54,068 bases of DNA. Origin: a virus. Its lineage: Duplodnaviria > Caudoviricetes. The notes beneath the pieces are model-generated. The model was not told the DNA's origin. It was given only the letters and a program-made list of their open reading frames with translations, and did not search any database. The stretch is from positions 1-54,068 of the IMG/VR virus record IMGVR_UViG_3300044825_001528. One strand, written 5' to 3'. Positions 1-25,178 of this stretch are shown piece by piece. The first letter of the stretch is position 1. The number at the start of each line of letters is the position of its first letter. The position numbers were made by a program, and so were the translations under genes.

Positions 1-3000
1 ATTACTTATGCTTTCTTCATAAGCAGGCAGATAGTTGTATTCATACACTAATCCTGTGTTCGGGAATATATCAATGAATGTAGTGGTGTTGTTATCATAC
101 ACTGTATCATTTTGAACGCAGTCATCAGTATAGTCAAAAGTAGTTTCCGATATTTGTGCTGCCGTTGTGGCGCTGACTAACAGGCCATCACGCTCATTCA
201 TCTTGACTACTCTACCAAATTCGGCAATGCGAGAGTCAATATTATTGTAAATGATTTGCGTTTTTGTGTAGGGAACATAGTTTAATCTATTGAGCACAGT
301 TTGTGTTCCTGTTAGATCAATAATGTTTCCTATAACTTCTTCAGTATCGCTAATCACCGTGATGTACAGAACAGTATTACTTGCTGTTGCTACAATATTG
401 GTAGGAGTAGTAGAGTTTATAGTATCAGCAATGTATTGAGTATTGCTGGAGCTTTCTCCAAATTCAGCTAAATATCCGTCAATGAAAATTCTGTCCCCAA
501 TTTCAACAGTTGGGTTCAAGCAAGTTATAGATCCATAACGCTGCCCGCTGTTTACATATTGATACACAGACCCTTCCACGCCAGCAACTTGATTTACAGT
601 GTTCAAGTCATAGGGTGATCCAACCACTATATTTGAACCATAGCGATTAGTATCGGTTGATATTCCAAACAGTGCTCCAGTTTGTGGATTATCTGTCTGT
701 AATCGTTGCTGTAGCTCTACCTCATTATAACTTACAAGTATGATTGCTCCATCGCTGGGTGGAGTAGTGAATGTCACCGTTTGAAAATCAGTAAGAGTAT
801 AATCATTGGTCAGCACACTGTTGACATAGACATCAAATTGATTAGCCGTTAGTACTCCATTGACTCCAAAATCACTGGTGTTGCCGTCGCCAACAAATCG
901 TTGATATTTGCGACTGTAAACATACGCGACGCCAGCATCATTGAGTCCATTGATTGACTCATTAGGTGCGCCAACAACTAACTTGACACCATCAATACTG
1001 GTAGCCAATGAATGCGCCCATCCGATATTTGTTGCTGGTGCCGCTAATATTGCTGGATCACCGTATTGACCAGTGATGTTGTCCAAATGTCTGATCTCTA
1101 CTTGACCAGCTTGTTGCTTGCCGATGTAGAGCCAGTTTCCATCGTTGCTAACAGCAATGCTGCTTATGATGTCTGTTGATGGCACAACTGATATTGATTG
1201 CGCCAACAATGTTAATCCAAAACTGTCTATCTCATAGTAGTGTACAGTACTGTTGCTTGCGATATACAGCCCGCTCTTGACCACTACAATCTTTGAGCCA
1301 AACCCAGCATCACCAGTAAGCGTGGTTACTGATCCGTCTCGGTCAATGTAGACAGTATTGGTTGTGCTGTTGCCTACTATTGTTCCAATGCGACTGTCAT
1401 ATGCTACTGCTGTACCAAGATTTGGTGATTGTGACAGTGATAGATTGACCTCTTCAAACACAGGACTTGATCCCCATACTGCCCAGTTGCCGTCGGTGTC
1501 ATAATCAACCCACTGACGAGTTGAGTATAGATCAATGACAGGATAACTGCTGCTGGCTATGTCGCTGGCCTGTGTGTATCGTGCGCTAACGAATCGCATT
1601 GCTATGCCGTTGCCCGCTATAACGGTCGTTGTTGATAGCAACAAATCAACAACCACCGAAGTCAGGCCACTAACGCTCTTTACACGATAGAATCCGTTGA
1701 TCAAGCTATCAAAACTTGAGATAGCAAATGGGTCGTTAGCAGATAAGTTGTGTGCTCCACTAAAGTTGACGGTGACGGTATTGTTCTGATTGTTGACTAT
1801 GCCAACTACTTGTACACCTAAACTCTGTGCTGTTAGTACTGCCCAACTGCTGTCATACTTGGCGATCCAAATGTTGTCACCAGCATACAGTGTGTCAATA
1901 GTTGTAGTGTCATCGTTTAGATTCTCATATTCAAACACATAGAACTTGACATCGCGCTTGTCAACATAACCAGCAGTGGGTAGACCCACTTCAGTTGTGT
2001 ATGGCAAGGTGTACTTGGGCAAGAAGCTCTGACTTGTAGGAGGACGCTCCCAGTTGATTAGTTGTGATAGCAACACTGTCTGATTGGCTAGAGCTATGTT
2101 GCCGCTGCTACTAAATCCAAGTAGTGTTGGGTTACCTGTGAGCAAGTGTTGATTCAGTTCTGCCTCTACATAGTTGCTGTTGAGAACTTTTCCAAAGCTG
2201 GCGCTGTTGATAGCCCAGTTCTCGTAGATGTCGTAGTTGATAGCACCCTGATCAAAGTTGGCGTTCTTGAAGCCCTCTGCTATCTGTACAGTGCCCTTCT
2301 CCTTGATCAGGTTCTTGTAGACATTGATCTGGGTGATGTCAGACAAATCTGCGGCAGTCATATACTCGCGTGGACGATAGCCAATCAAGCTGAACGATAA
2401 CTGATCAGCGTCAAGCTCAAGATTGGCTCTGTTGGTGTCGTAGTAGTACTGACTCTCTGCTGCCATAGTGCTTGGGTTAGGAAGCAGTCCACGCTTGATC
2501 TGATCGTAGTCAACTCTCAACCACAAGTTGGTATCAAACTCCAAGCTGGGTTCTATCAGTGTGCTTGCTACCCAGTATAGGCTCTTGTACAGCACAATGC
2601 TGCCCTTGGCATACTTGAGATTGCTCTGCCATTCCTGTATGTTGTTCTCGTTCAGTATGAAGCCTGCGGTGTCAACGAATCCAGACCATAGTGCCGTCTT
2701 GTACCCCTTGAGTAGCAGTCGTGGCTGACGCAGACCAGTGATCAAGTTGTAGATCACATCGTTGAACACGCTACTATTGTCAAACACGATTGCGTGCTCC
2801 ATACTGCTCAAGTTTAGACTGGTGTAGCTAACAGTGTCACCGTCGTTTAGCACCTTGATGCTGAAACTCTCGTTCTCACGAATCACGGCACTGTTCTGAC
2901 TCTGTATCGGTATCAGGTTCTGATTCAGCACAAAGTTCTGATCCTGTATGGTCAGTGGCTGAACAACCAGTCCAGGTCTGTACACTGTGAAGTACTGTGC

Positions 3001-6000
3001 GTTAGGGTTCAATGCTATGACACTGCCAACATCCCAGTCCTGCTCGCTCCAGGCCAAGAACTCCTGTATCATCCGATCCCAGTCGTACACTATGCCCTCA
3101 CTGGAGTTCTCAAACACTGCGCCCTGTTGTATCAGATAGTGCCCATAGTTGTTCAAGAAGTCAGCCACCGTGTCGCGACCATATAGCAGTGCTCCATAGG
3201 GCACTATGTACTCGCGATCAGTGTACCAGTCGTTCCAGACCTTGACTGTGGTTCCATTGACGCTGATGTTTCTATACAGTCCATTCTGCTTGGGTTGTGC
3301 CAGTGTAAAGTACTGACGGTTCACGCTGTTGCCCCATACTCTCCAACCGTTAGCATCACGCTGTACGATCACGCTGCTGTAGTATAGCTGCTCCTCTGGT
3401 GGATTGTCGTATAGCAGCACCGCATAGCTCTCATCTGGTACCAAGAAGCTGGTGTTCTTGCTGTTGGGAGTAGCGCGCTCAATATAGAACTTCAAGTAGT
3501 CCTTGGCACTGAACCCAGCCATATTGTAGGTCAGTCGCACATCCATATTCTGTAGCAGTGTGCTCACTGTTTCGTAGCCGCTCAAGTTGCGAATATTGAC
3601 ATAATCAACTATCCAGTTGATGTAGCTGTTCTTGGCAGTACCGTTGCCATAGATCTGTAGCGTTCTGCTATCCAAGTGATAGCGATTGTTGTACAGATAC
3701 TGGTTCAGTACGGTGTTGAACTTGTACAGATCCAGATCGGCGAACAAGTTGAAGAACTTGGCTGGCTTGGTCAGTGCCAGTACGCGCATCAGATCAAACG
3801 GCCAGGTGCTGCTCTTGATGTAGCTGCTCTCGGCTGGAGCAACATCACCAACACGCCAGTCACGATTGAAGGTCAAGCGATTGTAGTTGCCTACTATGAC
3901 CTCAAACGGGTTCAATAGTTCACCCGCACTGTTCACTGGCAGTATGTCAAGCAGTTCTGGACGCTCACGCTGTGTATCAACATAGCTGTCACCGTCGTTC
4001 CAGATGTAGCCCTGTGCTATCTCGTTCCACATATAGGTGTTGCCACTGGTGTATGGAGCAGCACCGTAGCGACTGTCCCACCAACTTGGCTTCACTGATA
4101 GACCCAGCATCTCCCAGGGTGCGGTATCGGGGCTATCAGTGTCGTATAGCCAACGATAGATACCACGCCAGTAGCCCTGCTGTAGTGCTGTGTTGGATAG
4201 CTTGTTGCTGCTCTGGTTGTAGTTGTAGCTGAATGGGTTGGCTATGTTGTAGACCTGGGTCTTGTAGTCAATCCTATTGGCACCCACCCAATTTAGAAAC
4301 TCGGTGCTGTAGATGTCAAGGATCTCACTGTTGCTGTAGTCAGTGCTGCGAAACTGCCCTGGAGCCACATCGGCCCAGATCAAGGGTATGTCACCTCCTG
4401 TCTTGATGTTGTTGTAGATGCGTGTCTCAAACTCTAACAGAGCTATGTCTCTGAAGTCAACAAGCTGTCCATCCACATAGGGTCCGTACAGCTTGTTGTA
4501 GCTACCATCGTGACCGCGTATGAAGTAGGTCGCTGGTGTGTAGCTAGTATCGTAGACCACTGCGGGCACATAGGCAGGGTACATACCCATACTGCTTGGA
4601 GTGCTTGGGCAGTAGCTGCCATAGGTCTGGTTGTACTCCTTGACGGTCAGTGTATCACCAGCAACGATTGGATAAGTCACAGTCACACTGGCTGCTATCG
4701 GGCTGACCACATAGTCAACGCCGCGAACCAACTGTTTGGTTCTGACTACGCCATTGATCGTGCGTGACAGATACAGTGCGACCGCATAGTAGTTGGCACT
4801 GTCAGTTGTATAGACACGATCCAAGGTGAAGATGGCAGTAGCAGGGGCAGCACCGAATGTGTAGGTGTTGGTGATGAACGGGCTGCCACTGAACAGCGTG
4901 TCAGTCCAGAAGAAAGTAGTGCTGTTGCTACGAGTAGTTGTAATCTCATATATGATGCTGTCAAGTATTTCGGCTGGACTGTTGATGATGCTGTAGTCGT
5001 TTTTGAATGCCAAGTCAACTATCAGGCTCTTGTAGATGTTGTACTGGTCACGGTTGTACTGTAGAGCACTAAAGAAGTTGACCTGTGGCTTGCGTAAGAA
5101 CAGACCAGGCAACACCAAGCTGGCGCTGTTCTGTATGATGCTGGTACCGTAGCTGTTCAGATTGCCCAGGTCGTGTATGTTGTTGTCACCGAACAGTGGG
5201 CCAGTGACGCCTGGAGCGTTGCTGTAGATTGTCTGGTACTGGTTTCGGATGTCTCCAACATCAACAGTGGTGATGTTGGTGTTGAACGGGTTGCTCTGTA
5301 GGTTGCTTGGAATCTGATAGAAGGCAGTAGCACTGACACTGTTGCTGTAGACCAACACAGTGACCTTGGTGTCAATGCCGACTTGTGCTGCCAGCGTGAC
5401 GGTAGTTGTGCCAGCAACAGTATCAACAGTGACTGTGAACTCATCACCGTTCAGTGCTGTGTCATTGACATAAACCTGTACAGGAGTCCAAGCTGTATCC
5501 GCATCAGCAACAGCAGGAACATCACAGACCACTGTGTTAGTTGGGGTAGTAACGGTGAACTCAAAGGTCTGGTACTGTATGCTTGGAGCAGCAGCGTTGA
5601 CCCAGCCTGAGAGCAGTTCGTAGGTTGTTGGGCTTGTATTGTTGTGTACGAACCCAATATTGATTGCCTGCTCAACGATATCATTGGTAGGAGTCTTGTA
5701 GCTGAAGGTGTCAGTGTTCATATTCACCGTGAAGCTGATGTCCCCGATGTTGGTCACGCTGCTGTAGGTGATAGAGAAGCCCAGCACTGGGTCGTTTGGA
5801 CCACTGCCTGGTGTGTAGCTGAACAACTTGGTGCCGGCAAAGGTGGTGCCACTGTACACAGTGCTGTTGCCTATGCTGATACCCTGGCTGTCATAGATGT
5901 CGAACAGTGGTGCCTGATTGATGGTGGTTTTTAGTTGACACTGCGACCAAGTTTCAGTGTCAACTGTCCAGCGCCAAGTAGTACCCAACCATTCGGAACC

Positions 6001-7185
6001 ATTGAGAACACAGAACTGACTGTTGTTGATAATAGTTGCGCCAGCATCTGTCAGGGCAATCACATCACTGCCACCAGGGCCTGCTGGCACAATGTTGACC
6101 GTGTATACATTCTTACGCACTGACAAATTAGTATCAGCCGCAAATACTATGGTATCGTCCTGCTTCAGCGTGTATCCATCTACTACATAGCTTGCTTGTC
6201 CCTCAATAGTTGTAAAGGCATTAGTTGTTACCGTGTCTAATACAGTGATAGCACCGACACTGTTGTTACCGCTGTTCCATAGCTGTAGATTGCCTCTAAA
6301 CTCAAGTATTGGTCGCAGTGCTCTGGTAACAGGGTTGCTGTTCTCACTGGTTACTGAACCAAGTGCTGTAGTTGTAGTGTCAAGTACATCCTGATGGAAC
6401 CAGCGATTGCTGCGAGTCCAAGCATTATTATCGCTGCTGTTTCTGCTGATTGTCAAGTAATCTGGGTTCACACTTGCCAACAGAGTAGCGTCCCAAGCAA
6501 CTACATCCCAGGGCTCTGCGTCCCATAGTCCATACACGGCGCTACCACTTGCCTCTGGCACCACAAAGTTACCAACGGGTAGCAACACTATGCTGGTACC
6601 AACTCCCTCTACATAGTACTGATTGCCACTATAACTGCTGGGCTCAACAGTTCCAAACTCAACTTTCAGACCGTTGGTGAACTTGATAGCATTGCTGCTT
6701 GTGTACTGTTGCTGTCCCAGTATATCATTGATAGTTCCACTGACAACTACTGGCACGGCATCTGGTCCAAGTGGTATCCAATAGTATTGAGCGTAGTTGA
6801 CTATCTTGTCGTAGTCAACGAACGGGTCCCAACTGTAGAAGTCGTTCTCAAACAATCTGTTCTGATTGTTGACTATGGAACCCTGGTTCTTCAGTGCCTG
6901 TACGATTCCTGGGTAGCTGATAAAGTCCTGTGCTGTCTGCGTCTCTGGTTTCAGAAACACTACACTGGGATCAAGTTGATAGTCAGTGCGAGATTTAGTT
7001 GGCTCTACAACATATTTGTCCCAAGGATCAACGCCATTGCCATATTTGTTGCCAATGAAACCCTCAACACGAGCAAGTTCGGGCTGCTGTGTGAGTACAT
7101 CCAAGCTGGCAGCCAAGAACTGCTTGTTGGTGTCGGTTCTAAAGATCTCGGGTAGAAAGTCAACTGTTCTTACTTTGGTCACCAT
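1..7185 (-). CDS. Giant baseplate/virion structural protein (>2395 aa, gp7-like position), runs off the left edge
   Basis: ATG at 7185 (MVTKVRTVDFLPEIFRTDTNKQFL) just after the gp6 stop. Spot-checked frame is open, and the ORF track lists no stop-terminated ORF in this frame, implying it is open to base 1. Contains GYWRGIYRWLYDTDSPDTAPWEMLG and FG-GAP-like propeller repeats (WAHSLATSIDGVKLVVGAPN). Confidence 0.85.
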   Translation of the reverse strand, partial: MVTKVRTVDFLPEIFRTDTNKQFLAASLDVLTQQPELARVEGFIGNKYGNGVDPWDKYVVEPTKSRTDYQLDPSVVFLKPETQTAQDFISYPGIVQALKNQGSIVNNQNRLFENDFYSWDPFVDYDKIVNYAQYYWIPLGPDAVPVVVSGTINDILGQQQYTSSNAIKFTNGLKVEFGTVEPSSYSGNQYYVEGVGTSIVLLPVGNFVVPEASGSAVYGLWDAEPWDVVAWDATLLASVNPDYLTISRNSSDNNAWTRSNRWFHQDVLDTTTTALGSVTSENSNPVTRALRPILEFRGNLQLWNSGNNSVGAITVLDTVTTNAFTTIEGQASYVVDGYTLKQDDTIVFAADTNLSVRKNVYTVNIVPAGPGGSDVIALTDAGATIINNSQFCVLNGSEWLGTTWRWTVDTETWSQCQLKTTINQAPLFDIYDSQGISIGNSTVYSGTTFAGTKLFSYTPGSGPNDPVLGFSITYSSVTNIGDISFTVNMNTDTFSYKTPTNDIVEQAINIGFVHNNTSPTTYELLSGWVNAAAPSIQYQTFEFTVTTPTNTVVCDVPAVADADTAWTPVQVYVNDTALNGDEFTVTVDTVAGTTTVTLAAQVGIDTKVTVLVYSNSVSATAFYQIPSNLQSNPFNTNITTVDVGDIRNQYQTIYSNAPGVTGPLFGDNNIHDLGNLNSYGTSIIQNSASLVLPGLFLRKPQVNFFSALQYNRDQYNIYKSLIVDLAFKNDYSIINSPAEILDSIIYEITTTRSNSTTFFWTDTLFSGSPFITNTYTFGAAPATAIFTLDRVYTTDSANYYAVALYLSRTINGVVRTKQLVRGVDYVVSPIAASVTVTYPIVAGDTLTVKEYNQTYGSYCPSTPSSMGMYPAYVPAVVYDTSYTPATYFIRGHDGSYNKLYGPYVDGQLVDFRDIALLEFETRIYNNIKTGGDIPLIWADVAPGQFRSTDYSNSEILDIYSTEFLNWVGANRIDYKTQVYNIANPFSYNYNQSSNKLSNTALQQGYWRGIYRWLYDTDSPDTAPWEMLGLSVKPSWWDSRYGAAPYTSGNTYMWNEIAQGYIWNDGDSYVDTQRERPELLDILPVNSAGELLNPFEVIVGNYNRLTFNRDWRVGDVAPAESSYIKSSTWPFDLMRVLALTKPAKFFNLFADLDLYKFNTVLNQYLYNNRYHLDSRTLQIYGNGTAKNSYINWIVDYVNIRNLSGYETVSTLLQNMDVRLTYNMAGFSAKDYLKFYIERATPNSKNTSFLVPDESYAVLLYDNPPEEQLYYSSVIVQRDANGWRVWGNSVNRQYFTLAQPKQNGLYRNISVNGTTVKVWNDWYTDREYIVPYGALLYGRDTVADFLNNYGHYLIQQGAVFENSSEGIVYDWDRMIQEFLAWSEQDWDVGSVIALNPNAQYFTVYRPGLVVQPLTIQDQNFVLNQNLIPIQSQNSAVIRENESFSIKVLNDGDTVSYTSLNLSSMEHAIVFDNSSVFNDVIYNLITGLRQPRLLLKGYKTALWSGFVDTAGFILNENNIQEWQSNLKYAKGSIVLYKSLYWVASTLIEPSLEFDTNLWLRVDYDQIKRGLLPNPSTMAAESQYYYDTNRANLELDADQLSFSLIGYRPREYMTAADLSDITQINVYKNLIKEKGTVQIAEGFKNANFDQGAINYDIYENWAINSASFGKVLNSNYVEAELNQHLLTGNPTLLGFSSSGNIALANQTVLLSQLINWERPPTSQSFLPKYTLPYTTEVGLPTAGYVDKRDVKFYVFEYENLNDDTTTIDTLYAGDNIWIAKYDSSWAVLTAQSLGVQVVGIVNNQNNTVTVNFSGAHNLSANDPFAISSFDSLINGFYRVKSVSGLTSVVVDLLLSTTTVIAGNGIAMRFVSARYTQASDIASSSYPVIDLYSTRQWVDYDTDGNWAVWGSSPVFEEVNLSLSQSPNLGTAVAYDSRIGTIVGNSTTNTVYIDRDGSVTTLTGDAGFGSKIVVVKSGLYIASNSTVHYYEIDSFGLTLLAQSISVVPSTDIISSIAVSNDGNWLYIGKQQAGQVEIRHLDNITGQYGDPAILAAPATNIGWAHSLATSIDGVKLVVGAPNESINGLNDAGVAYVYSRKYQRFVGDGNTSDFGVNGVLTANQFDVYVNSVLTNDYTLTDFQTVTFTTPPSDGAIILVSYNEVELQQRLQTDNPQTGALFGISTDTNRYGSNIVVGSPYDLNTVNQVAGVEGSVYQYVNSGQRYGSITCLNPTVEIGDRIFIDGYLAEFGESSSNTQYIADTINSTTPTNIVATASNTVLYITVISDTEEVIGNIIDLTGTQTVLNRLNYVPYTKTQIIYNNIDSRIAEFGRVVKMNERDGLLVSATTAAQISETTFDYTDDCVQNDTVYDNNTTTFIDIFPNTGLVYEYNYLPAYEESISN

Positions 7186-7203: not shown

Positions 7204-10200
7204 TTATACGCTACGCTGTAGTGCCTGTGGAGTCAAGGCGCTGATTACTATGATGTCGGTCACTGTTGCCCCATTGACAAAGATCTCGTTGGCGGCACTG
7301 CGTATCTCATACAGATCGCCAAAGGTTTGATTAGGGTCATTGGGCACTAACACCACACTGCTGATCAATCCTGCCAACTCAACGTGTAGATAGGCAGTGA
7401 GTTCACTGAAGTAGAAGGTGTCTCCGAAGTCCCACTTGTCAAGCGTGAAGTAGCTGTTCAGTGCTGCCAACACACTGCTGCGTATCTGACTATCGCTGGC
7501 AGTTGTTCCAACACTCTTGATCACTTTGATCTTACCCTGTAGAGCGGGACTGGCTTTGGTTCCAAACAGGGGCTTGAAGGTCACACTGTTCAGTACCACA
7601 CTGTCACTCAACATCTTGAAGTCGTCCACAGCATTGTACTGCTGCTGTAGTTCACTCATAGTTGGCTTTAGTGGTTCTGGTATTGTGCCTGTGCTGTCAT
7701 TGATCCAGTTCTGATACTGACTGTAGTAGGCTTGTGTGACCAAGTACAGATCAATGATATTAGTTGTTGCTGGATCTATTCTGGTTGTGTTGTTGCTGTT
7801 GTGTCTGTACTGAAAGTTGATGGTGCTACGACCAGTTTTTACAGTATAGTTGCTGCTGACATCATTTAGTAGTAGCACTGGAGGTGTTATGCCTATCTGC
7901 TGCTGTGTCTTGTAGAACTTGTTCTCACTAGTAGCATAGAACACTGTGCCTGCTGGGTACTCGTAGATCACATCCTCAATCTGACTTTGAATAGCATAAG
8001 CAGTAATAACCGCACCCTGCGGCAATAGTTGTTGTCTTGTCAACAGTTGTACATCATTGATCAACTCAAAGAACACATAGGCACCACTGCTTGTGCCAAC
8101 AATGTTAGTGAAGAAATCAGGATCAGTGGTCATATCGGTCACAGGATCAATACTGCTGACCTTGACCTGATAGTCATTGGGATAACCATCACTCAATGTT
8201 GGCTGTGCGGTCACATTGAGCACATAATCTACTCCCAGTGTTCCAGTCAGAGTAGGATTACTATTGGTTCTGATGATGTTCACAAAGTCACTCAACACTT
8301 GACCACTCTTGGGATCATACACACGAGCACTGGTATCAAACACAAATCTGACCTCACTGACGCTGCCAAAGTAGTAGTTGGTGTTGCGTATAGTGACCAA
8401 GTAGGTCTGATTGATACTGTTGTACTCAAACTTTACGAACCATAGGGCATCGTTGACTGGTCCAACAGACCAACGATTTTCCACTATGGTCTTGGCATTG
8501 TCATACACCAAGCTAAAGTTTTGTTCGTTTCTGATCAACTCAACTATGGAGTCAACTATCGTGCTATCCAGTGTGTTATCAAAGCTTGGTATGATTGCTG
8601 ATCCAAGAACTCCACTGCTAATAGTGGGATCAAGATATGCTCCAGTAGGAACATAACTATTCAGCGTAATCGGGCCAGTTCCATTGCTAAAGTTTCCACT
8701 GCCGAAGTTTTTACCATCTCCAACCACAGTGTCAACAGATACCCATATGCTCAACTTGTCTCCAGCATTCAAGTCGGGTATTCCAGTTTGTAATCTGTTG
8801 TTGCTGTCAAAGTATCTGGGTGCTCCTGTGACTGGATCAGGACTTGGCAAGAACTTTAGCAGTGCTCCACTGGTGATGTACTTCATTGTATACGCACTGG
8901 AAATACCACTGCTGACTGGTATTGTTCCTCCGCTTATTTTGATGTAGAAGTACCCATTGACATTCCTTCCATCTATTCCACTTGCGTTCCAGTAAGTGTA
9001 GTTGTCAACACTCTCTCCACCAGGATAATATCCAGTATAGCGTGGATAATGTTGTTGATAGTACTGTACTGCGGCTGTATCTGATAGCAACACACTCAAT
9101 GTTTGGCTCAAGAACTCCAGTGCTATGTTGATACTACTGGTGCTAAAGGTGACGGTTCCACTTTGATTGTCAGTGTATAGAGCACCGTCATCAGCAAAGA
9201 TGTTGGCACTGCTGTACTTGAATGTAGGATCAAGTAGGTCAAGATTTCTGCTGACTCCAATACTGCTGCGATTTACAGCAGTGCTCTTGATAATGCTGTT
9301 GTACAATGTGTATGGGAAGTTGCTGTAATCTTCGCCATTGACCATACGATTTTGAGTATAGTAGCGTGCGGGTGCTCGTTGCTTGATAGCTGATAGTGGC
9401 TCGCGCTGTAATGCAGTGCTAACTGTTGTTTGTAAACTCAATGTAATGGTCAGGGTCTCTATACGATTGGTTCTGCTTACATATGGAATGTTGACTACTA
9501 TGCCCTGCATCTCACTTGGGCTAATGGTATATGTCTGTGCGTTACCGCTACGAACATAAGCACGATACAGTCCAACAGGAACCTCACCAAATACTCCATC
9601 TCCAAACTGATATGTGACCTGATCATTGAACCTGCTGCCTACACTGAATACACGACGGGCATTATTTCCCTGTAGATTAGCATTGGCATACACAGTTTCT
9701 ACTTGTGTCCATAGATTTTGTATAGCGCCATTATCATCAAGTTGATATAGCCAAGTATCTGTATTGTTGATTCCTTGAATGTCTATGGGCTGAAGATTAT
9801 TTTGTATGGCTTCAGCAAATCTGAAATCATATGGCTGTAATGTTCCCTGTTTAAAGTAGAAGAAGAATCCAGTGTTGGGGCTTCCAAATCCAAGTTTATC
9901 GCTGCGATAGACCATATTGAATTGATTTGTTGGTGCTGGTGGCAATTCATACAAACTCTCACTATTCACACTGGTAACACTGACCAACTCAAAGTCCATA
10001 ATCAATGCATCTATTTCGGTTCTAAATGGTATAACAGGAAGTTGCTCTGGTGTGGAAATAGTGTACTCATCGGTTTTGATTCCAAGTATACTATTTGTGT
10101 TTCCTGGACGACCAACACGCTGATTGTTTACCAATGCAGCATTTATGATAGTATTGAACTGTTCCTGCCAGTTCTGATTAGCAGCATCATTCCACAGCAC

Positions 10201-20692: not shown

Positions 20693-22759
20693 ATGCTAAT
20701 AATCAAAAAACTAACACTAAAAAACTTTCTGTCAATTGGCGCAGTGACACAAGAAATAGATTTCAATCGTAAAGACCTGACTCTTATTCTAGGAGAGAAT
20801 CTTGATCTTGGTGGTGATGGTGCTAGAAATGGCACGGGAAAAACCACGATTGTGCAAGGATTGAGTTATGCTCTGTTTGGCTCACCAATCAACAAGATTA
20901 AACAGGATAATTTGATCAACAGAACTAACGGCAAGAACATGCTGGTCACTATTGAGTTCAGCATGCGCGGTGTTGATTACAAAATTGTTCGCGGTCGCAA
21001 GCCTAATGTGCTGAAGTTCTATGTGAACAATCAAGAGCAAGAAGTATCATCTAATGACAGTCAGGGTGACAGTCGTGAAACACAGGATGTTATTGAAGGT
21101 GTTCTGTGCATGACTCCTGATATGTTCAGGCAAGTTGTGGCACTGAATACCTACAATGAACCCTTTCTTGCAATGAAGGTATCAGATCAACGAACCATCA
21201 TTGAAGAATTGCTTGGGATTACACTGTTGAGCGAAAAGGCTGATGCTATCAAGGACTTGAACAAAACTACCAAAGAGCAAATTCAGCGAGAAGAGTTTAG
21301 AATTCATGGAATTGAAGAAGCTAACTCCAAAATTCAAGAGCAGATCGAGAGCTTGAAGAAGCGTCAGCGTTTGTGGTTAGCAAAGCGAGACGAGGATCTA
21401 AACAAACTGGCTGATAGTTATACCGAGTTGAGCAAGATTGATATTGAACAGGAACTGGAGGCTCATCGTCAACTGGCGTTATATAACAGCAAACGCGAGA
21501 AACTTGACAAGTATAACGCATTGCTTGCTCGTCAAACTACCTGGCTAGATCGCAAGAACGCAGACATCTCTACATTAGAGCAGAAGATTTCCAAACTACA
21601 GCGGATTGACATTGCTGCTGAACTTGCGGCACACAAGCAGCTAGCAGTATATTCGCAGCGTGTCAAGGATAATGAGGAACATGCCGCGAAGCTGTCGCGA
21701 CTACAACGAGATCTAGACAAGGAGACTAAACTAGTAAGCAAGCTGGAGGGAGAGATTTCCAAGCTGCGAGCGCATAAGTGCTATGCGTGTGGGCAGGATT
21801 TTCACGACGATAGCCAGGCCACTGTTCTTGCCAAAAAGATAGCTGATCATGACGAGGCTGTTGCTCATGTTAACACTATTGCTGCTGAACTGAAAGAGCA
21901 TGATGCTAATCCAGTTCTAGTGCCACTGCGCCCAACTACGATATACAGCACTGAAGAACAGGCATTCAAGCATAGCAGCGATCTTGCTAATCTGCTACAG
22001 CAGCTAGAGTCAAAGCGTGCGGAGTGTGATCCATATAGTGAACAGTTGTTAGAGAACGCAGTCACTGTAGAAGGTTCTCCTCCAGCTACTCATTATGATA
22101 CCGAGGCAGAGGCACACAAGCACAGTGCTAAACTCACTGCATTGGTAGAACAGATTGAGAGCAAGCACAGTGAATCTGATCCCTATGCTGAACAGATAGA
22201 AGAGATGGGTAGAACTGGTATTCAGACGATCGATTTTGACGAGCTAAACAGATTGACCAAAGTACTACAGCATCAGGAGTATTTGCTTGATCTGCTGACT
22301 AACAAAAAAAGTTTTGTTCGCAAGCGTATCATTGAGCAGAATTTGAGCTATTTGAATGGACGATTGACCTACTATCTAGAGAAGATTGGTCTTCCACATC
22401 AGGTTGTGTTTCAGAACGATTTGAGCGTTGAGATCACTGAACTTGGACGAGATCTTGATTTTCATAATTTGAGTCGCGGAGAGATGAACAGGCTTATTAT
22501 TGCCTTGAGTTTTGCGTTTCGTGATGTATGGGAAAGCTTATACTCATCGTGCAATATGCTGTTCATTGACGAGTTGATTGATAGTGGTATGGATACTATT
22601 GGAACAGAAAACAGTTTGGCATTGTTGAAAGACATGGTCAGACGACGAAACAAAAGTATCTGGCTAGTAAGTCATAAAGATGAGCTAGTTGGACGAGTAA
22701 ACAGTGTATTAAAGGTGATCAAGGAGTCAGGATTTACAAGTTATGATACCAGTGAGTAA
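20693..22759 (+). CDS. gp46: Recombination ATPase, Rad50/SbcC-like
   Basis: Walker A NGTGKT, CYAC zinc hook, LSRGE signature, LFIDE Walker B, VSH. Confidence 0.93.
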   Translation: MLIIKKLTLKNFLSIGAVTQEIDFNRKDLTLILGENLDLGGDGARNGTGKTTIVQGLSYALFGSPINKIKQDNLINRTNGKNMLVTIEFSMRGVDYKIVRGRKPNVLKFYVNNQEQEVSSNDSQGDSRETQDVIEGVLCMTPDMFRQVVALNTYNEPFLAMKVSDQRTIIEELLGITLLSEKADAIKDLNKTTKEQIQREEFRIHGIEEANSKIQEQIESLKKRQRLWLAKRDEDLNKLADSYTELSKIDIEQELEAHRQLALYNSKREKLDKYNALLARQTTWLDRKNADISTLEQKISKLQRIDIAAELAAHKQLAVYSQRVKDNEEHAAKLSRLQRDLDKETKLVSKLEGEISKLRAHKCYACGQDFHDDSQATVLAKKIADHDEAVAHVNTIAAELKEHDANPVLVPLRPTTIYSTEEQAFKHSSDLANLLQQLESKRAECDPYSEQLLENAVTVEGSPPATHYDTEAEAHKHSAKLTALVEQIESKHSESDPYAEQIEEMGRTGIQTIDFDELNRLTKVLQHQEYLLDLLTNKKSFVRKRIIEQNLSYLNGRLTYYLEKIGLPHQVVFQNDLSVEITELGRDLDFHNLSRGEMNRLIIALSFAFRDVWESLYSSCNMLFIDELIDSGMDTIGTENSLALLKDMVRRRNKSIWLVSHKDELVGRVNSVLKVIKESGFTSYDTSE

Positions 22760-22786
22760 TTATTTGCCGCGATAGAGTAGAATTGA

Positions 22787-22792
22787 TAAGTA
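22787..22792 (+). promoter_or_regulatory. Variant late promoter (GATAAGTA) 5 nt before the resolvase ATG
   Basis: One mismatch to TAAATA with the same short spacing seen at other genes. Confidence 0.45.
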
Positions 22793-22797
22793 AAGTT

Positions 22798-23343
22798 ATG
22801 CCATCTGCTAGTAAGATCAAGGGATCAGGGTTTGAGCGAGAGATAGCCAAGTATCTATCCGAGATATACGGCGAGCCTTTCATTCGTGCTCCTGGTTCTG
22901 GAGCCTATACTGGCGGAACTAATAGTCATCGTAAACAGATGCTGCACGAAGGTCAAATAAGAAGCTTCAAGGGAGATATTGTTCCTGGACAAAGCTTTGT
23001 GAACTTCAACGCAGAGGTAAAGTTCTATGCTGACTTTCAGTTTCATCAGTTGTTTGATGAATCCAAGCAATTGGAATCATGGATCAAACAACTAATGACT
23101 GCTAGCGATCCTGATGATCTGAATATCTTATTCATGAAGTTCAATCGTAAGGGTCGCTATGTGGCAGTTCAATCCAATCTAAATTGGAATATATCATATA
23201 ATCATTTTGTGTATCACAGTGATCACTATGACGCTTGGATCATCTGTGAATTGGAAAAATTCTTTACATCAAATCTTTACAAAGTAAAAACTCTATCTGG
23301 CAAAAAAACTCTTGTAGAAAAACTTCCTGAAAACACACTTTAA
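22798..23343 (+). CDS. PD-(D/E)xK nuclease, Holliday-junction-resolvase-like
   Basis: MPSASKIKGSGFEREIA...RAPGSGA...GDI...EVK follows the Hjc-like pattern; ATG at 22798 preferred over the upstream TTG. Confidence 0.75.
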   Translation: MPSASKIKGSGFEREIAKYLSEIYGEPFIRAPGSGAYTGGTNSHRKQMLHEGQIRSFKGDIVPGQSFVNFNAEVKFYADFQFHQLFDESKQLESWIKQLMTASDPDDLNILFMKFNRKGRYVAVQSNLNWNISYNHFVYHSDHYDAWIICELEKFFTSNLYKVKTLSGKKTLVEKLPENTL

Positions 23344-23384
23344 AACATTGTTTACAATACTTAACACACACGCACAAAAATTAT

Positions 23385-23746
23385 TGGGGTTATGACCTGA
23401 CCCACCCGGATATTAGGACTAACACATGTTGTGGACTAATATCACTGCTATAGGATTAATAGCAGGCGGCTGTCCCAGCCAAGGGTATAAAAGGCTGATA
23501 GATGAGCTTCGGTGAAGCGATGTAATTGCTACAATCACTGATGCTCCGGTTAGAGTGATCAACACCGTAAAATAATCTATCCCGAGACGAGAAAGAAGCA
23601 GGCTCTATTTACTCAATAGAGATTGATTCTAGATGGAATCAAACAACTGCGCCGAAGAACACCCTCGTCGGTGATGAGAACACCAATCGGTATGCTGATA
23701 AACAATCGGGGCCTTTGTTATACAGATTTTTTTCTGTAGGTCTTTT
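23385..23746 (+). ncRNA. Candidate large structured non-coding RNA (family not recognised)
   Basis: No ORF; more than 12 helices including nested long-range pairs 23497-23503/23575-23581, 23586-23591/23664-23669, 23581-23585/23706-23710; G-U pairs favour the plus strand. Confidence 0.55.
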
Positions 23747-23838
23747 CATTCTCCGTTTTAAATGACTAGAATACATTATCAGTGAATGAATTAAACATCA
23801 GTTCAACAACTAATAATAACTGCTTGTATTATATTAGT

Positions 23839-23985
23839 AGGTCGTTTCGCTTACTCAACGACCTGAATTGGTCATCAGGCTTCGCTTGATGACCAATTCA
23901 TTTTTATCTCTGATTGATTCTATTCAGTTAGAGATAAAGAAAGCCAGAGGCATTAATGCCTCTGGCTGATGAGCGTTAGCTCATC
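23839..23985. repeat. Array of five abutting hairpins/palindromes (possible origin or cruciform element)
   Basis: Stems 23839-46/23857-64, 23864-77/23887-900, 23903-11/23930-38, perfect 26-bp palindrome 23942-67, 23968-74/23979-85. Confidence 0.85.
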
Positions 23986-24129
23986 GTAGATCCAGGATTT
24001 TATTAAGATGAACTGAAGCAAACATGTATAACAGAGTAGGTTTAATCCTAACAAGAAAACAAGCAGACATTGCTGCTTAATTTTGCTTCTAGGATTTTGG
24101 GCGGAGTATGGTCTCGTGATATACTATGT

Positions 24130-24336
24130 TTAGAAGAAGGGCATCTTGCTTTTCTTGGTAGTTTCTAGATTGTCTTCAATGATTTTATTGAGATTATTGA
24201 ACTCATCAGTGCTCATGTTCAATATATCGTTCATTGAGATGCCACCTCGCATATACCAAGCAAGCCGTTGTGCGGTGAACTTGATATTCATGGCATCTTT
24301 CCACATATCTTCGCCCAGCTTCTTCATCTCATCCAT
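24130..24336 (-). CDS. Small tail/baseplate assembly chaperone segment, probably also the -1 frameshift extension of the upstream gene
   Basis: LAWYMRGGISMNDILNMSTDE resembles C-terminal extensions of tail assembly chaperones; frame is open back to the slippery site. Confidence 0.7.
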   Translation of the reverse strand: MDEMKKLGEDMWKDAMNIKFTAQRLAWYMRGGISMNDILNMSTDEFNNLNKIIEDNLETTKKSKMPFF

Positions 24337-24353
24337 GTTAAGATGAAGAAGCC

Positions 24354-25178
24354 TTAATCGAAAAAATCTACTACATTAATGACTATGGATTGTTTATATT
24401 CGTGACCACAATGTATACACTTAATATCAATTGGTTTAAGAGAATTTTTCTCTTTCATTTCCACACTTTTATCTCTGATTAAGTTATTGACATTTTTATC
24501 ACAATTCAGTAAATATTCCTGAATATATAGCTTATCGGATACGATTGTTTGCGGCGTCATTATGCATTCAATCGTTTGAGCAATCATATCAGTCATCAAT
24601 TCATTCATTCGTTTGAGATTCTGTTTTATCAAATCTTTTTGTTCTTCGGTGTCTTCATAATCTTGCAATATTACTAAAAGTTTTCTAATTTCATATTGAT
24701 TGATATTGACTTTGTTTATTTCTGCAAAAGTTAATGGTTTGAATTTGATCTTTAAATCCCCAACTTGAAGAACATCATCATAATCAACTTCATGTTGTTG
24801 TCCCAGTAGATTTACTAGATTGATTCCATATCTTGATTCTTCCTCGCATGATGGACATTTGGTGTCTAAATCCATTTCTTCACCAGTGCTGGCTATTTTT
24901 ATAGCAATGGTAATAGCGTCTAGATCTATTGAGTTAAGCTCCCATGGATTTTTAACAGAGGGAATGCAACTTTTGATGATTTCTACAAGAGCTACCCCAT
25001 TGTAAAGTGCATCAGGCGTTCTTGCGGTAATCTCGTCAATAGCAGTCATTGGATAAACAGCTAATTGATTATTTGGAGGAATATCTACTGTGCCGCGATC
25101 ATAATATTTTCCCTTGCTCGGAAGCTCAAAGTACATTACTGGGCGACGAAAATATTGTTGTAGGGGGTTAGAACTCAT
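24354..25178 (-). CDS. gp26: Baseplate hub assembly chaperone, gp26-like
   Basis: NPLQQYFRRP...LPSKGKYY...PMTAIDEI; two CxxC pairs (CPSC, CIHC); ends in DFFD. Confidence 0.75.
   Translation of the reverse strand: MSSNPLQQYFRRPVMYFELPSKGKYYDRGTVDIPPNNQLAVYPMTAIDEITARTPDALYNGVALVEIIKSCIPSVKNPWELNSIDLDAITIAIKIASTGEEMDLDTKCPSCEEESRYGINLVNLLGQQHEVDYDDVLQVGDLKIKFKPLTFAEINKVNINQYEIRKLLVILQDYEDTEEQKDLIKQNLKRMNELMTDMIAQTIECIMTPQTIVSDKLYIQEYLLNCDKNVNNLIRDKSVEMKEKNSLKPIDIKCIHCGHEYKQSIVINVVDFFD
24360..24366 (-). other. Putative -1 ribosomal frameshift heptamer T TTT TTC
   Basis: GAT TTT TTC GAT TAA; the -1 frame reads TTT TTT CGA TTA AGG CTT CTT CAT CTT AAC ATG, in frame with 24130..24336. Confidence 0.7.

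Follow-up and report, generated by a model that had tools for sequence, protein, structure and literature searches.

A large structured RNA, probably of a new class, encoded next to a nuclease gene in an uncultured phage

The DNA considered here is the 54,068-base viral contig IMGVR_UViG_3300044825_001528, analysed over its whole length and referred to as the window. On its + strand, at positions 23386-23751 and on the 3' side of a gene for a PD-(D/E)XK endonuclease, lies a segment of about 366 nucleotides (nt) that is probably a true gene for a structured RNA of a new class, absent from Rfam; we refer to this RNA as type A. A reading of the sequence alone (the sequence-only reading) had proposed an undescribed structured RNA at 23385-23746. 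The stretch stands, with its ends moved slightly, and the description of the RNA as a new one is upheld, in that no family matches it and its fold is kept in four homologues by changes on both sides of the pairs. The completeness of the contig is estimated at 16%, and since its relatives are contigs of 230-364 kb from freshwater samples, we take the window to be a piece of a jumbo phage.

Fold of the window RNA

From 5' to 3', the RNA consists of a hairpin (P1), a four-way junction, a three-way domain, a large 3' domain and a terminal hairpin followed by a U-run (Table 1). Its 5' and 3' ends form no terminal helix, P1 being a local hairpin. The minimum-free-energy (MFE) fold of the + strand from 23385 to 23746 has an energy of -115.1 kcal/mol, as against -90.5±4.9 for shuffled sequences (z -4.98), and none of 100 shuffles folded as well, so that the comparison with shuffles proposed in the sequence-only reading comes out in its favour; the - strand of the same stretch gives a weaker z of -3.75. 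The RNA lies within 23344-24129, which is, as had been noticed from the sequence, the single gap of at least 200 nt in the window that is free of open reading frames (ORFs of at least 60 amino acids in six frames). The GC content is 0.44-0.45 in the first half of this gap, compared with 0.31-0.39 in the flanks.

Most of the helices that the sequence-only reading had picked out are recovered. Hairpins P2a and P2b are present in the sequence and in the MFE fold exactly where they had been placed; the GATAGAT/ATCTATC helix (P3) does close a domain, of the three-way kind; the nesting of CCCGA/TCGGG, GACGAG/CTCGTC and GCAG/CTGC (P4, P5 and P6), with two hairpins of 7 base pairs (bp) inside, is there in full; and the weak terminal hairpin (ACAGA/TCTGT) is followed by its T-run. 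Two of the proposed pairings need revision. The third simple hairpin, 23476-80/23493-97, competes with GGCTG/CAGCC (P2c), which together with P2 is kept in all homologues, and is now a possible alternative to it. The suggested pseudoknot CGGTG/CACCG is not conserved, the homologues having no matching partner; CACCG includes the 3' strand of hairpin P3b, and the two strands of P3b covary with each other (CGGU/ACCG, CGCU/AGCG and GGGU/ACCC).

In the six sequences compared over P1, the invariant columns are G1-G4, U8, G9, A10, C11, U13 and C16-18. The loop of P3b, UAGAGUGAUCAAC, which is 13 nt long (..GUGAUmAAC), is nearly invariant and is followed by the segment UAAAAUA. The loop of P1 (GACCUA) and the tail on the 3' side of the terminal hairpin (UAGGUC) are complementary in all seven distinct members; in L003 both sides have changed, to GACUUA and UAAGUU, which is the sole compensated event. 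The tail can alternatively extend the stem of the terminal hairpin. On the strength of that one compensated event, the P1 loop and tail may form a pseudoknot or a switch.

Homologues of the type A RNA

Type A is defined here by the P1 loop UGACNU, the P2 junction, the hinge GGnAUAAA, the P3b loop GUGAUmAAC followed by UAAAAU, and a tail complementary to the P1 loop. A search of the viral collection with the nuclease protein gave 328 related stretches, and nhmmer with the window RNA matched two loci among the best 80 of them (L012, E 1.5e-15; L003, E 4.4e-7). A motif scan of metagenome contigs returned 62 stretches, three of which are true members (L139, the truncated L106, and L123, a duplicate of the L003 contig), and a corresponding scan of prokaryote assemblies returned 32, with one true member. 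The latter, L204, is a contig of 1.5 kb from a Rhizobium bin and is matched by nhmmer at E 1.9e-62. Another candidate, L205, and nine loci carrying the P1 pattern (L207-L211, L214 and L216-L218) were rejected as chance matches.

There are five distinct full-length type A sequences, those of the window, L003, L012, L139 and L204, and the same nuclease gene lies upstream of the RNA in all of the full-length homologues. Lengths range from 366 to 435 nt, with some 60 extra nt in domain 3 of L012, L139 and L204. R1, a covariance model of domain 2 only, matches type A members alone, with scores of 75-99 bits; the 98.5 bits of the window follow by construction, since it belongs to the seed, and L204, from outside the seed, scores 70.2 bits (E 4e-14).

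Conservation of structure

When folded separately, the RNAs of the window, L003, L012 and L139 share one plan over their first 200 nt, which comprise domains 1 and 2. In an alignment of the five sequences, 92.9% of the cells at the 35 pairs of these two 5' domains are standard pairs, and 16 of the 35 have changed on both sides, compared with 6.5±1.8 in shuffles (0 of 500 reached the observed value) and with one to four when the partner is slid by 1-3 columns; counted over four sequences the figure is 15 of 35. Within the 3' domain, P6a and P6b adopt like folds in all five sequences, and five of the eight P6b pairs are compensated and none is broken, around a loop that reads UrGAUr. Helices P5 and P7 are retained with different letters, as read by eye from the printed sequences, and the terminal hairpin is retained with altered letters in L012, L139, L204 and L003. 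The L003 RNA as a whole folds with a z of -2.62.

The + strand is favoured because G-U pairs, which occur in P3, P3a and P6b (one P6b pair is U-G in four of the five sequences), would be A-C mismatches on the - strand. The region is non-coding, since the 65 substitutions between L012 and L139 are distributed 25/23/17 by position modulo 3, without codon periodicity, and the indels between the two are of 1, 1, 1 and 2 nt. Contigs of near-identical strains from runs X5 and X6 have no differences inside 23386-23751, as against eight differing sites in 335 flanking bases across runs X4, X5 and X6, and run X9 gave no contig on this stretch; at such low depth the contrast is a hint of purifying selection on the RNA.

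Comparison with known RNA families

None of the 4227 models of Rfam 15 matches any part of the window at the gathering score of its family, so the Rfam search that the sequence-only reading had suggested leaves the RNA without a family. A sensitive scan of 23200-24400 returned nine matches at E up to 10, none of them inside 23386-23751 and all far under gathering. The loci of ten relatives gave no match at E up to 0.1, and in four further loci the only matches were two chance ones below threshold, one being on the wrong strand.

Individual families give the same picture, in agreement with the earlier impression that hallmarks of transfer RNA (tRNA), transfer-messenger RNA (tmRNA), RNase P and introns are missing. 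ARAGORN finds neither a tRNA nor a tmRNA gene in the 54-kb window. A tmRNA has a tag reading frame and a tRNA-like domain made from both ends; here the 5' end is occupied by the local hairpin P1. RNase P RNA has a P4 pseudoknot with CR-I and CR-V and a terminal P1 helix made from both ends; the RNase P model finds no match at E up to 10, nor any in the homologue loci, the CR motifs not having been searched separately. A group I intron interrupts a gene and has a P3-P9 core with a guanosine-binding P7; Intron_gpI has no match in the window, and the upstream ORF has its own stop and is followed by terminators and convergent genes. The GOLLD and ROOL models do not match, and the tRNA genes that usually accompany these RNAs in phages and prophages are missing from the window. 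A riboswitch or other 5' leader belongs to the 5' untranslated region of a same-strand gene and has an expression platform; the window RNA is followed by the terminators at 23864-23905 and then by convergent genes, with no + strand gene ahead of them. At the DNA level no similarity to GenBank phages was found for any of the type A RNA and the types B and C described below, and no account of a large RNA 3' of a jumbo-phage nuclease gene came up in the literature, searched without the supplementary data of PMC10690425.

The nearest known counterparts are GOLLD and ROOL, a small group of large, ornate RNAs borne by phages and prophages and treated in a cryo-electron-microscopy study (PMC12286853). 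Type A resembles them as a large multi-domain phage non-coding RNA (ncRNA) with many conserved junction nucleotides that emerged from comparative analysis, and differs from them in its smaller size, the lack of a model match, the absence of nearby tRNA genes and its location in a replication/recombination module. The Pseudomonas jumbo phage PA5oct, which is among the nearest cultured relatives by nuclease gene (42-44% identity), has two ncRNAs defined by RNA sequencing, ncRNA001 and ncRNA002, which are reported from the terminal repeat region, at 8263-8498 and 21951-22401 (PMC7318152). These are likewise, on that description, jumbo-phage ncRNAs of a few hundred bases (PMC7318152); type A, unlike them, adjoins a nuclease gene and is defined by conserved structure. 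They were considered as relatives and rejected, since nhmmer detects no resemblance to either type A or type C. The same data source, IMG/VR, has yielded, in a catalogue of 2023, 'DNAVirus_X' candidates, which are described as 29-151 nt long and as lying upstream of genes, some of them near resolvase/RusA genes (PMC10690425). They share with type A covariation in phage intergenic regions, and none is described as multi-domain, about 360 nt long and 3' of a nuclease gene; single hairpins of types A, B and C may already be in that catalogue (PMC10690425).

A short variant beside a replication-initiator-like gene

A pattern search with P1 and the hinge revealed a shorter type A variant, of about 190-245 nt, in L212, L213, L215, L219 and L206. 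It has the 5' core and the 3' end of the longer RNA in common with it. The RNA is about 190 nt long in the first four, which carry the identical P1. In the short variant P2 encloses only the third hairpin (P2c), and 3' of P2 come the hinge GGGAAUAAAC, three small hairpins, CGAUAAACGAGAACA and a terminal hairpin. L206, which nhmmer matches at E 5e-5 over domain 1, differs from the other four by a clean 57-nt insertion that corresponds exactly to hairpins P2a and P2b. The L215 RNA is preceded by a sigma-70-like promoter (TAGAAA-16-TACAAT), which stops 8 nt short of the first G of P1; the divergent neighbouring gene matches replication-initiation PHROGs, and the mini RNA and two terminator-like hairpins are followed by a 62-amino-acid ORF on the same strand, a layout compatible with a riboswitch or 5' leader. 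Because the short variant has its own predicted promoter, the type A core would be an independent transcription unit, and the variant of about 190 nt offers a handy experimental entry point.

Three RNA types in the nuclease slot

A structured RNA follows directly after the nuclease gene in every one of the best 80 of the 328 loci, to which all of the slot counts refer; it is of type A in two, of type B in nine and of type C in 69. In 79 of these loci the nuclease gene is followed by a gap of at least 250 nt without ORFs of at least 80 amino acids, and in the other one, L029, the slot is cut by the contig end.

Type C, the commonest, is an RNA of about 350 nt that starts 8-10 nt past the nuclease stop codon (e.g. 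L017:3595-3950, +). Across 25 non-redundant sequences 98.0% of the cells are paired; compensation is seen at 39 of 79 pairs and amounts to 281 cells, compared with 83.6±8.7 in shuffles (0 of 500 as high). Among the pairs counted are those of a helix, CUCC/GGAG, and of a candidate pseudoknot, UCCC/GGGA. Type C also has long invariant unpaired stretches, and matches nothing in Rfam or among GenBank phages. As a target for discovery it outranks type A. The nuclease stop codon of type C loci lies within an 'AAAAATT' box; this box was considered as a general phage promoter and dismissed, most of its 14 matches in the 54 kb being intragenic. The fold of type B is likewise complex, and GGACAAUACUAAG and CGAACGUUCUUCCC are among its conserved segments.

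No similarity between the three types is detected by nhmmer profiles or the R1 model, and in local alignments of 32 pairs compared with shuffles only two z values exceed 3, inconsistently between members. Because complete type C genomes are without the type A domain and type A genomes are without the type C RNA, the types appear to replace one another in the slot, either as diverged homologues or as unrelated substitutes. In larger genome records, R1 has no match in G003, G004 or the two 100% complete records, G001 and G002, and has one at E 0.28 in G005, and type C DNA has only chance matches of 14-19 nt in G000, G006 and G007, a search that did not include the L139 record.

Possible functions and alternative explanations

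Several results count against the interpretation of 23386-23751 as an RNA gene with a function in trans. There are just five distinct full-length sequences, two of them about 85% alike; the MAFFT alignments are imperfect, that of domain 3 being poor and its covariation term unfavourable (+1.99); and the structure tested was derived from the same sequences, so that the controls flatter it. The full-length fold of L012 has a z of -1.49, with 7 of 100 shuffles as good, and that of the L206 variant a z of -1.21, with 23 of 200 as good. No convincing promoter was found 5' of the RNA in the window, and the terminal hairpin, too weak for the simple terminator scan, is absent from its list; a TACAAT at 23353-58 may be a -10 box, in which case the 5' end would lie near 23365. 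No RNA sequencing run with the sequence was found, and the expression, ends and processing of the RNA are inferred, as are its partner and activity. With no detectable similarity between types A, B and C, position is also the sole ground for a shared function in the slot.

If the segment is an RNA gene, the RNA would be made with the nuclease operon or just after it, and most transcripts would stop at the weak terminator of the RNA itself, the others at the downstream hairpin H2; the terminal hairpin and U-run are, by sequence, likely to be an intrinsic terminator. The stable, compactly folded product could then act in trans, its conserved unpaired loops and hinge binding a partner that might be a protein or another nucleic acid, and pairing of the P1 loop with the 3' tail may hold the two ends of the molecule together. 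We consider action in trans through a bound partner to be a serious prospect, if slightly short of an even one. The partner would probably be tied to phage DNA replication or recombination; elsewhere in the window no targets complementary to the conserved loops stand out. To our knowledge, natural RNA classes that exceed 300 nt and have complex conserved folds are few, and earlier ones have proved to be ribozymes, the cores of ribonucleoproteins or, most recently, cages that assemble themselves. A more specific proposal, which we regard as unlikely, is that the RNAs are interchangeable subunits or ribozymes of the replication/recombination machinery, for example a partner by which the Mre11/Rad50-like nuclease complex is directed, restrained or shielded, or a starter of DNA synthesis; if true, this would make them a new functional RNA class central to jumbo-phage DNA metabolism.

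RNAs that prime DNA synthesis, such as ColE1 RNA II and the T4 origin transcripts, are encoded beside replication functions, and origins are often swapped between relatives. The type A RNA could accordingly be a replication-origin transcript that primes or licenses DNA synthesis, with the AT-rich spacer at 23752-23835 as an unwinding element, and it does resemble ColE1 RNA II and phage origin transcripts in being structured or origin-linked and in lying beside replication genes. Both of its contexts are replication/recombination modules (the SbcCD-nuclease block and the initiation-PHROG gene), the GC content of the spacer 3' of the RNA is about 0.35-0.39 compared with 0.44-0.45 inside it, and three unrelated types in one slot would fit origin swapping. 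However, a terminal hairpin and U-run belonging to the RNA precede the AT-rich stretch, the window contains no iterons (the motif TGATmAAC occurs nine times in 54 kb, two copies being in the RNA), transcription at the locus is convergent and not divergent, and a primer has no need of at least ten conserved helices and invariant loops; type A thus departs from ColE1 RNA II in its lack of iterons, its own terminator and its greater amount of conserved tertiary-looking detail, and an origin transcript seems improbable. Similar considerations apply to a cis-acting element, which would be a structure in the 3' untranslated region of the nuclease messenger RNA or, for the short variant, a 5' leader (riboswitch or attenuator). 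The start of type C about 8-10 nt past the nuclease stop implies co-transcription, the mini RNA of L215 and its two terminator-like hairpins precede a same-strand ORF, and a tail that can pair with either the lower stem of the terminator or the P1 loop has the logic of a switch. Against this, the jumbo-phage members have no + strand gene before H2 and the convergent genes, the gene immediately upstream varies (unrelated small ORFs in L003, L012, L139 and L204, none in the window), the size and invariant loops go beyond what a 3' stabiliser needs, and no Rfam riboswitch matches; we think a cis role rather improbable as well, and if anything a shade more so.

That the conservation might belong to the DNA, as single-stranded hairpins, a recombination hot spot, a cassette boundary or a chance fold in a spacer, is suggested by the good folding of the - strand (z -3.75), by the slot being a hot spot for replacement by unrelated sequences among relatives and by the clusters of simple hairpins on the flanks. 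It is nevertheless very unlikely, given that pairs are kept through G-U combinations that would be mismatched on the other strand, that nested multi-branch helices survive indels of at least 60 nt, that the predicted promoter and terminator of the mini variant are correctly placed, and that close strains are unchanged in the RNA and changed in its flanks. Least probable of all, and hardly to be expected, is a very divergent RNase P RNA, tmRNA, group I intron, GOLLD or ROOL. The size (350-430 nt) and the multi-domain fold with conserved junctions fall in the range of these families, and GOLLD and ROOL are phage-borne (PMC12286853), but none of their models matches within the RNA at E up to 10, nor in the 10 + 4 other loci, the ends are unpaired with P1 local, no gene is interrupted and the 54 kb hold no tRNA genes.

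The reading of 23386-23751 as a structured RNA gene is therefore the one that we prefer. It would bring to light a new class, and with it two further, apparently unrelated ones in the same slot, on more than 80 uncultured freshwater jumbo-phage contigs; it would define three targets for RNA biochemistry, of which type C has very strong covariation, and it would give a testable lead, tied by position, on an unrecognised component of jumbo-phage DNA metabolism.

Genome setting and transcription signals

On the + strand the gene order is SbcD-like, SbcC-like and then the 186-amino-acid PD-(D/E)XK endonuclease, the three genes being matched by phrog_244, phrog_77 and phrog_100. The convergent - strand block begins, in window coordinates, with a 68-amino-acid ORF at 24130-24336 and continues with a T4-type baseplate-hub-like gene at 24354-25178 (PF12322 match); a search for related loci with the hub-like protein, from this other flank, gave no matches. 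Between the RNA and this block lie two + strand hairpins, H1 and H2, and a terminator of the convergent genes (Table 1). H1 and H2 recur in L003, L012, L139, L204, L004 and L002 with changed stems and with loops that share a motif like CUCGCUnCGCUCA.

Table 1. Positions of the RNA, its parts and associated features (window coordinates unless a locus is named)
Feature	Position	Strand	Basis or remark
PD-(D/E)XK endonuclease gene, last of SbcD-SbcC-nuclease block	22783..23343	+	PF24608, E 3e-27; T5 D14-like; PHROGs label 'RusA-like resolvase'
Probable type A structured RNA gene, about 366 nt	23386..23751	+	MFE fold, homologues, covariation, G-U pairs
P1 hairpin, conserved loop ..UGACCU..	23387-92/23398-403	+	Invariant columns
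P2, closing helix of four-way junction	23404-07/23483-86	+	Separate folds of 4 sequences; compensated pairs
P2a hairpin	23409-16/23436-43	+	Fold; enclosed by P2
P2b hairpin	23445-51/23459-65	+	Fold; enclosed by P2
P2c hairpin, GGCTG/CAGCC	23468-72/23476-80	+	Enclosed by P2; kept in all homologues
Hinge GGGUAUAAAA (GGGAAUAAAC in relatives), partly unpaired	23484..23493	+	Invariant columns in alignments A4, A7 and A10
P3, closing helix of domain 2, GATAGAT/ATCTATC	23497-503/23575-81	+	Compensated pairs
P3a long hairpin	23504-46	+	Inside P3
P3b hairpin, 4 bp	23547-50/23564-67	+	Compensated pairs
Domain 3	23581..23710	+	MFE fold
P4, CCCGA/TCGGG	23581-85/23706-10	+	Closes domain 3
P5, GACGAG/CTCGTC	23586-91/23664-69	+	Nested in P4; compensation read by eye
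P6, GCAG/CTGC	23598-601/23647-50	+	Nested inside P5
P6a hairpin, 7 bp	23603-09/23615-21	+	Same fold in all 5 sequences
P6b hairpin, 7 bp, loop UAGAUG	23623-29/23636-42	+	Same fold in 5 sequences; compensated
P7 hairpin	23670-84	+	Compensation read by eye
Second hairpin 3' of P7	23686-99	+	MFE fold
Conserved motif CUGAUAAAC	23695-703	+	In domain 3
Terminal hairpin ACAGA/UCUGU (23722-26/23733-37), lower stem GCCU/AGGU, tail AGGUC, U-run 23743-46	23711..23751	+	Sequence
H1 hairpin, loop UCGCUUACUCA	23840-63	+	Recurs in relatives
H2 hairpin, then T-run; predicted strong terminator	23864-900 (to 23905)	+	Terminator scan
Predicted terminator of convergent - strand genes	23942..23967	-	Terminator scan
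Short type A variant	L215:1766-1960; L206:134-350	+	P1/hinge patterns
Type B examples	L004:3621-3926; L009:3620-3924; L002:3844-4202	+	Conserved segments

Some minor features of these loci may be recorded. In type C loci a loop similar to that of H1/H2 appears to read on the opposite strand, and further simple hairpins occupy 23906-24129 of the window, including hairpins at 24060-24079. In L003, L012, L139 and L204, though not in the window, the nuclease gene is separated from the RNA by a small unrelated ORF. In L003 (3571-3759, +), as in the type B locus L002 (3629-3832, +), the intervening ORF encodes a very basic protein of 62-67 amino acids, the end of which the C-terminal tail of the window nuclease resembles; in L012 (3535-3816, +), L139 and L204 (451-710, +) it encodes a 93-amino-acid protein with a weak QSregVF_b match. 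One base is missing at window position 23302, inside the 3' end of the nuclease ORF, in one run X6 contig (depth 4.6), which represents either a strain with an altered nuclease C-terminus or an assembly error.

The corresponding part of PA5oct (75,666-77,180; L103:1979-3490), 1.5 kb from the neighbourhood of the baseplate hub to the nuclease gene, has just four annotated ORFs, of 38-50 amino acids. At the other end of the window, the first 6.7 kb (1-6700) are without ORFs of at least 100 amino acids, though covered by ORFs of at least 60, and are probably a block of small early genes.

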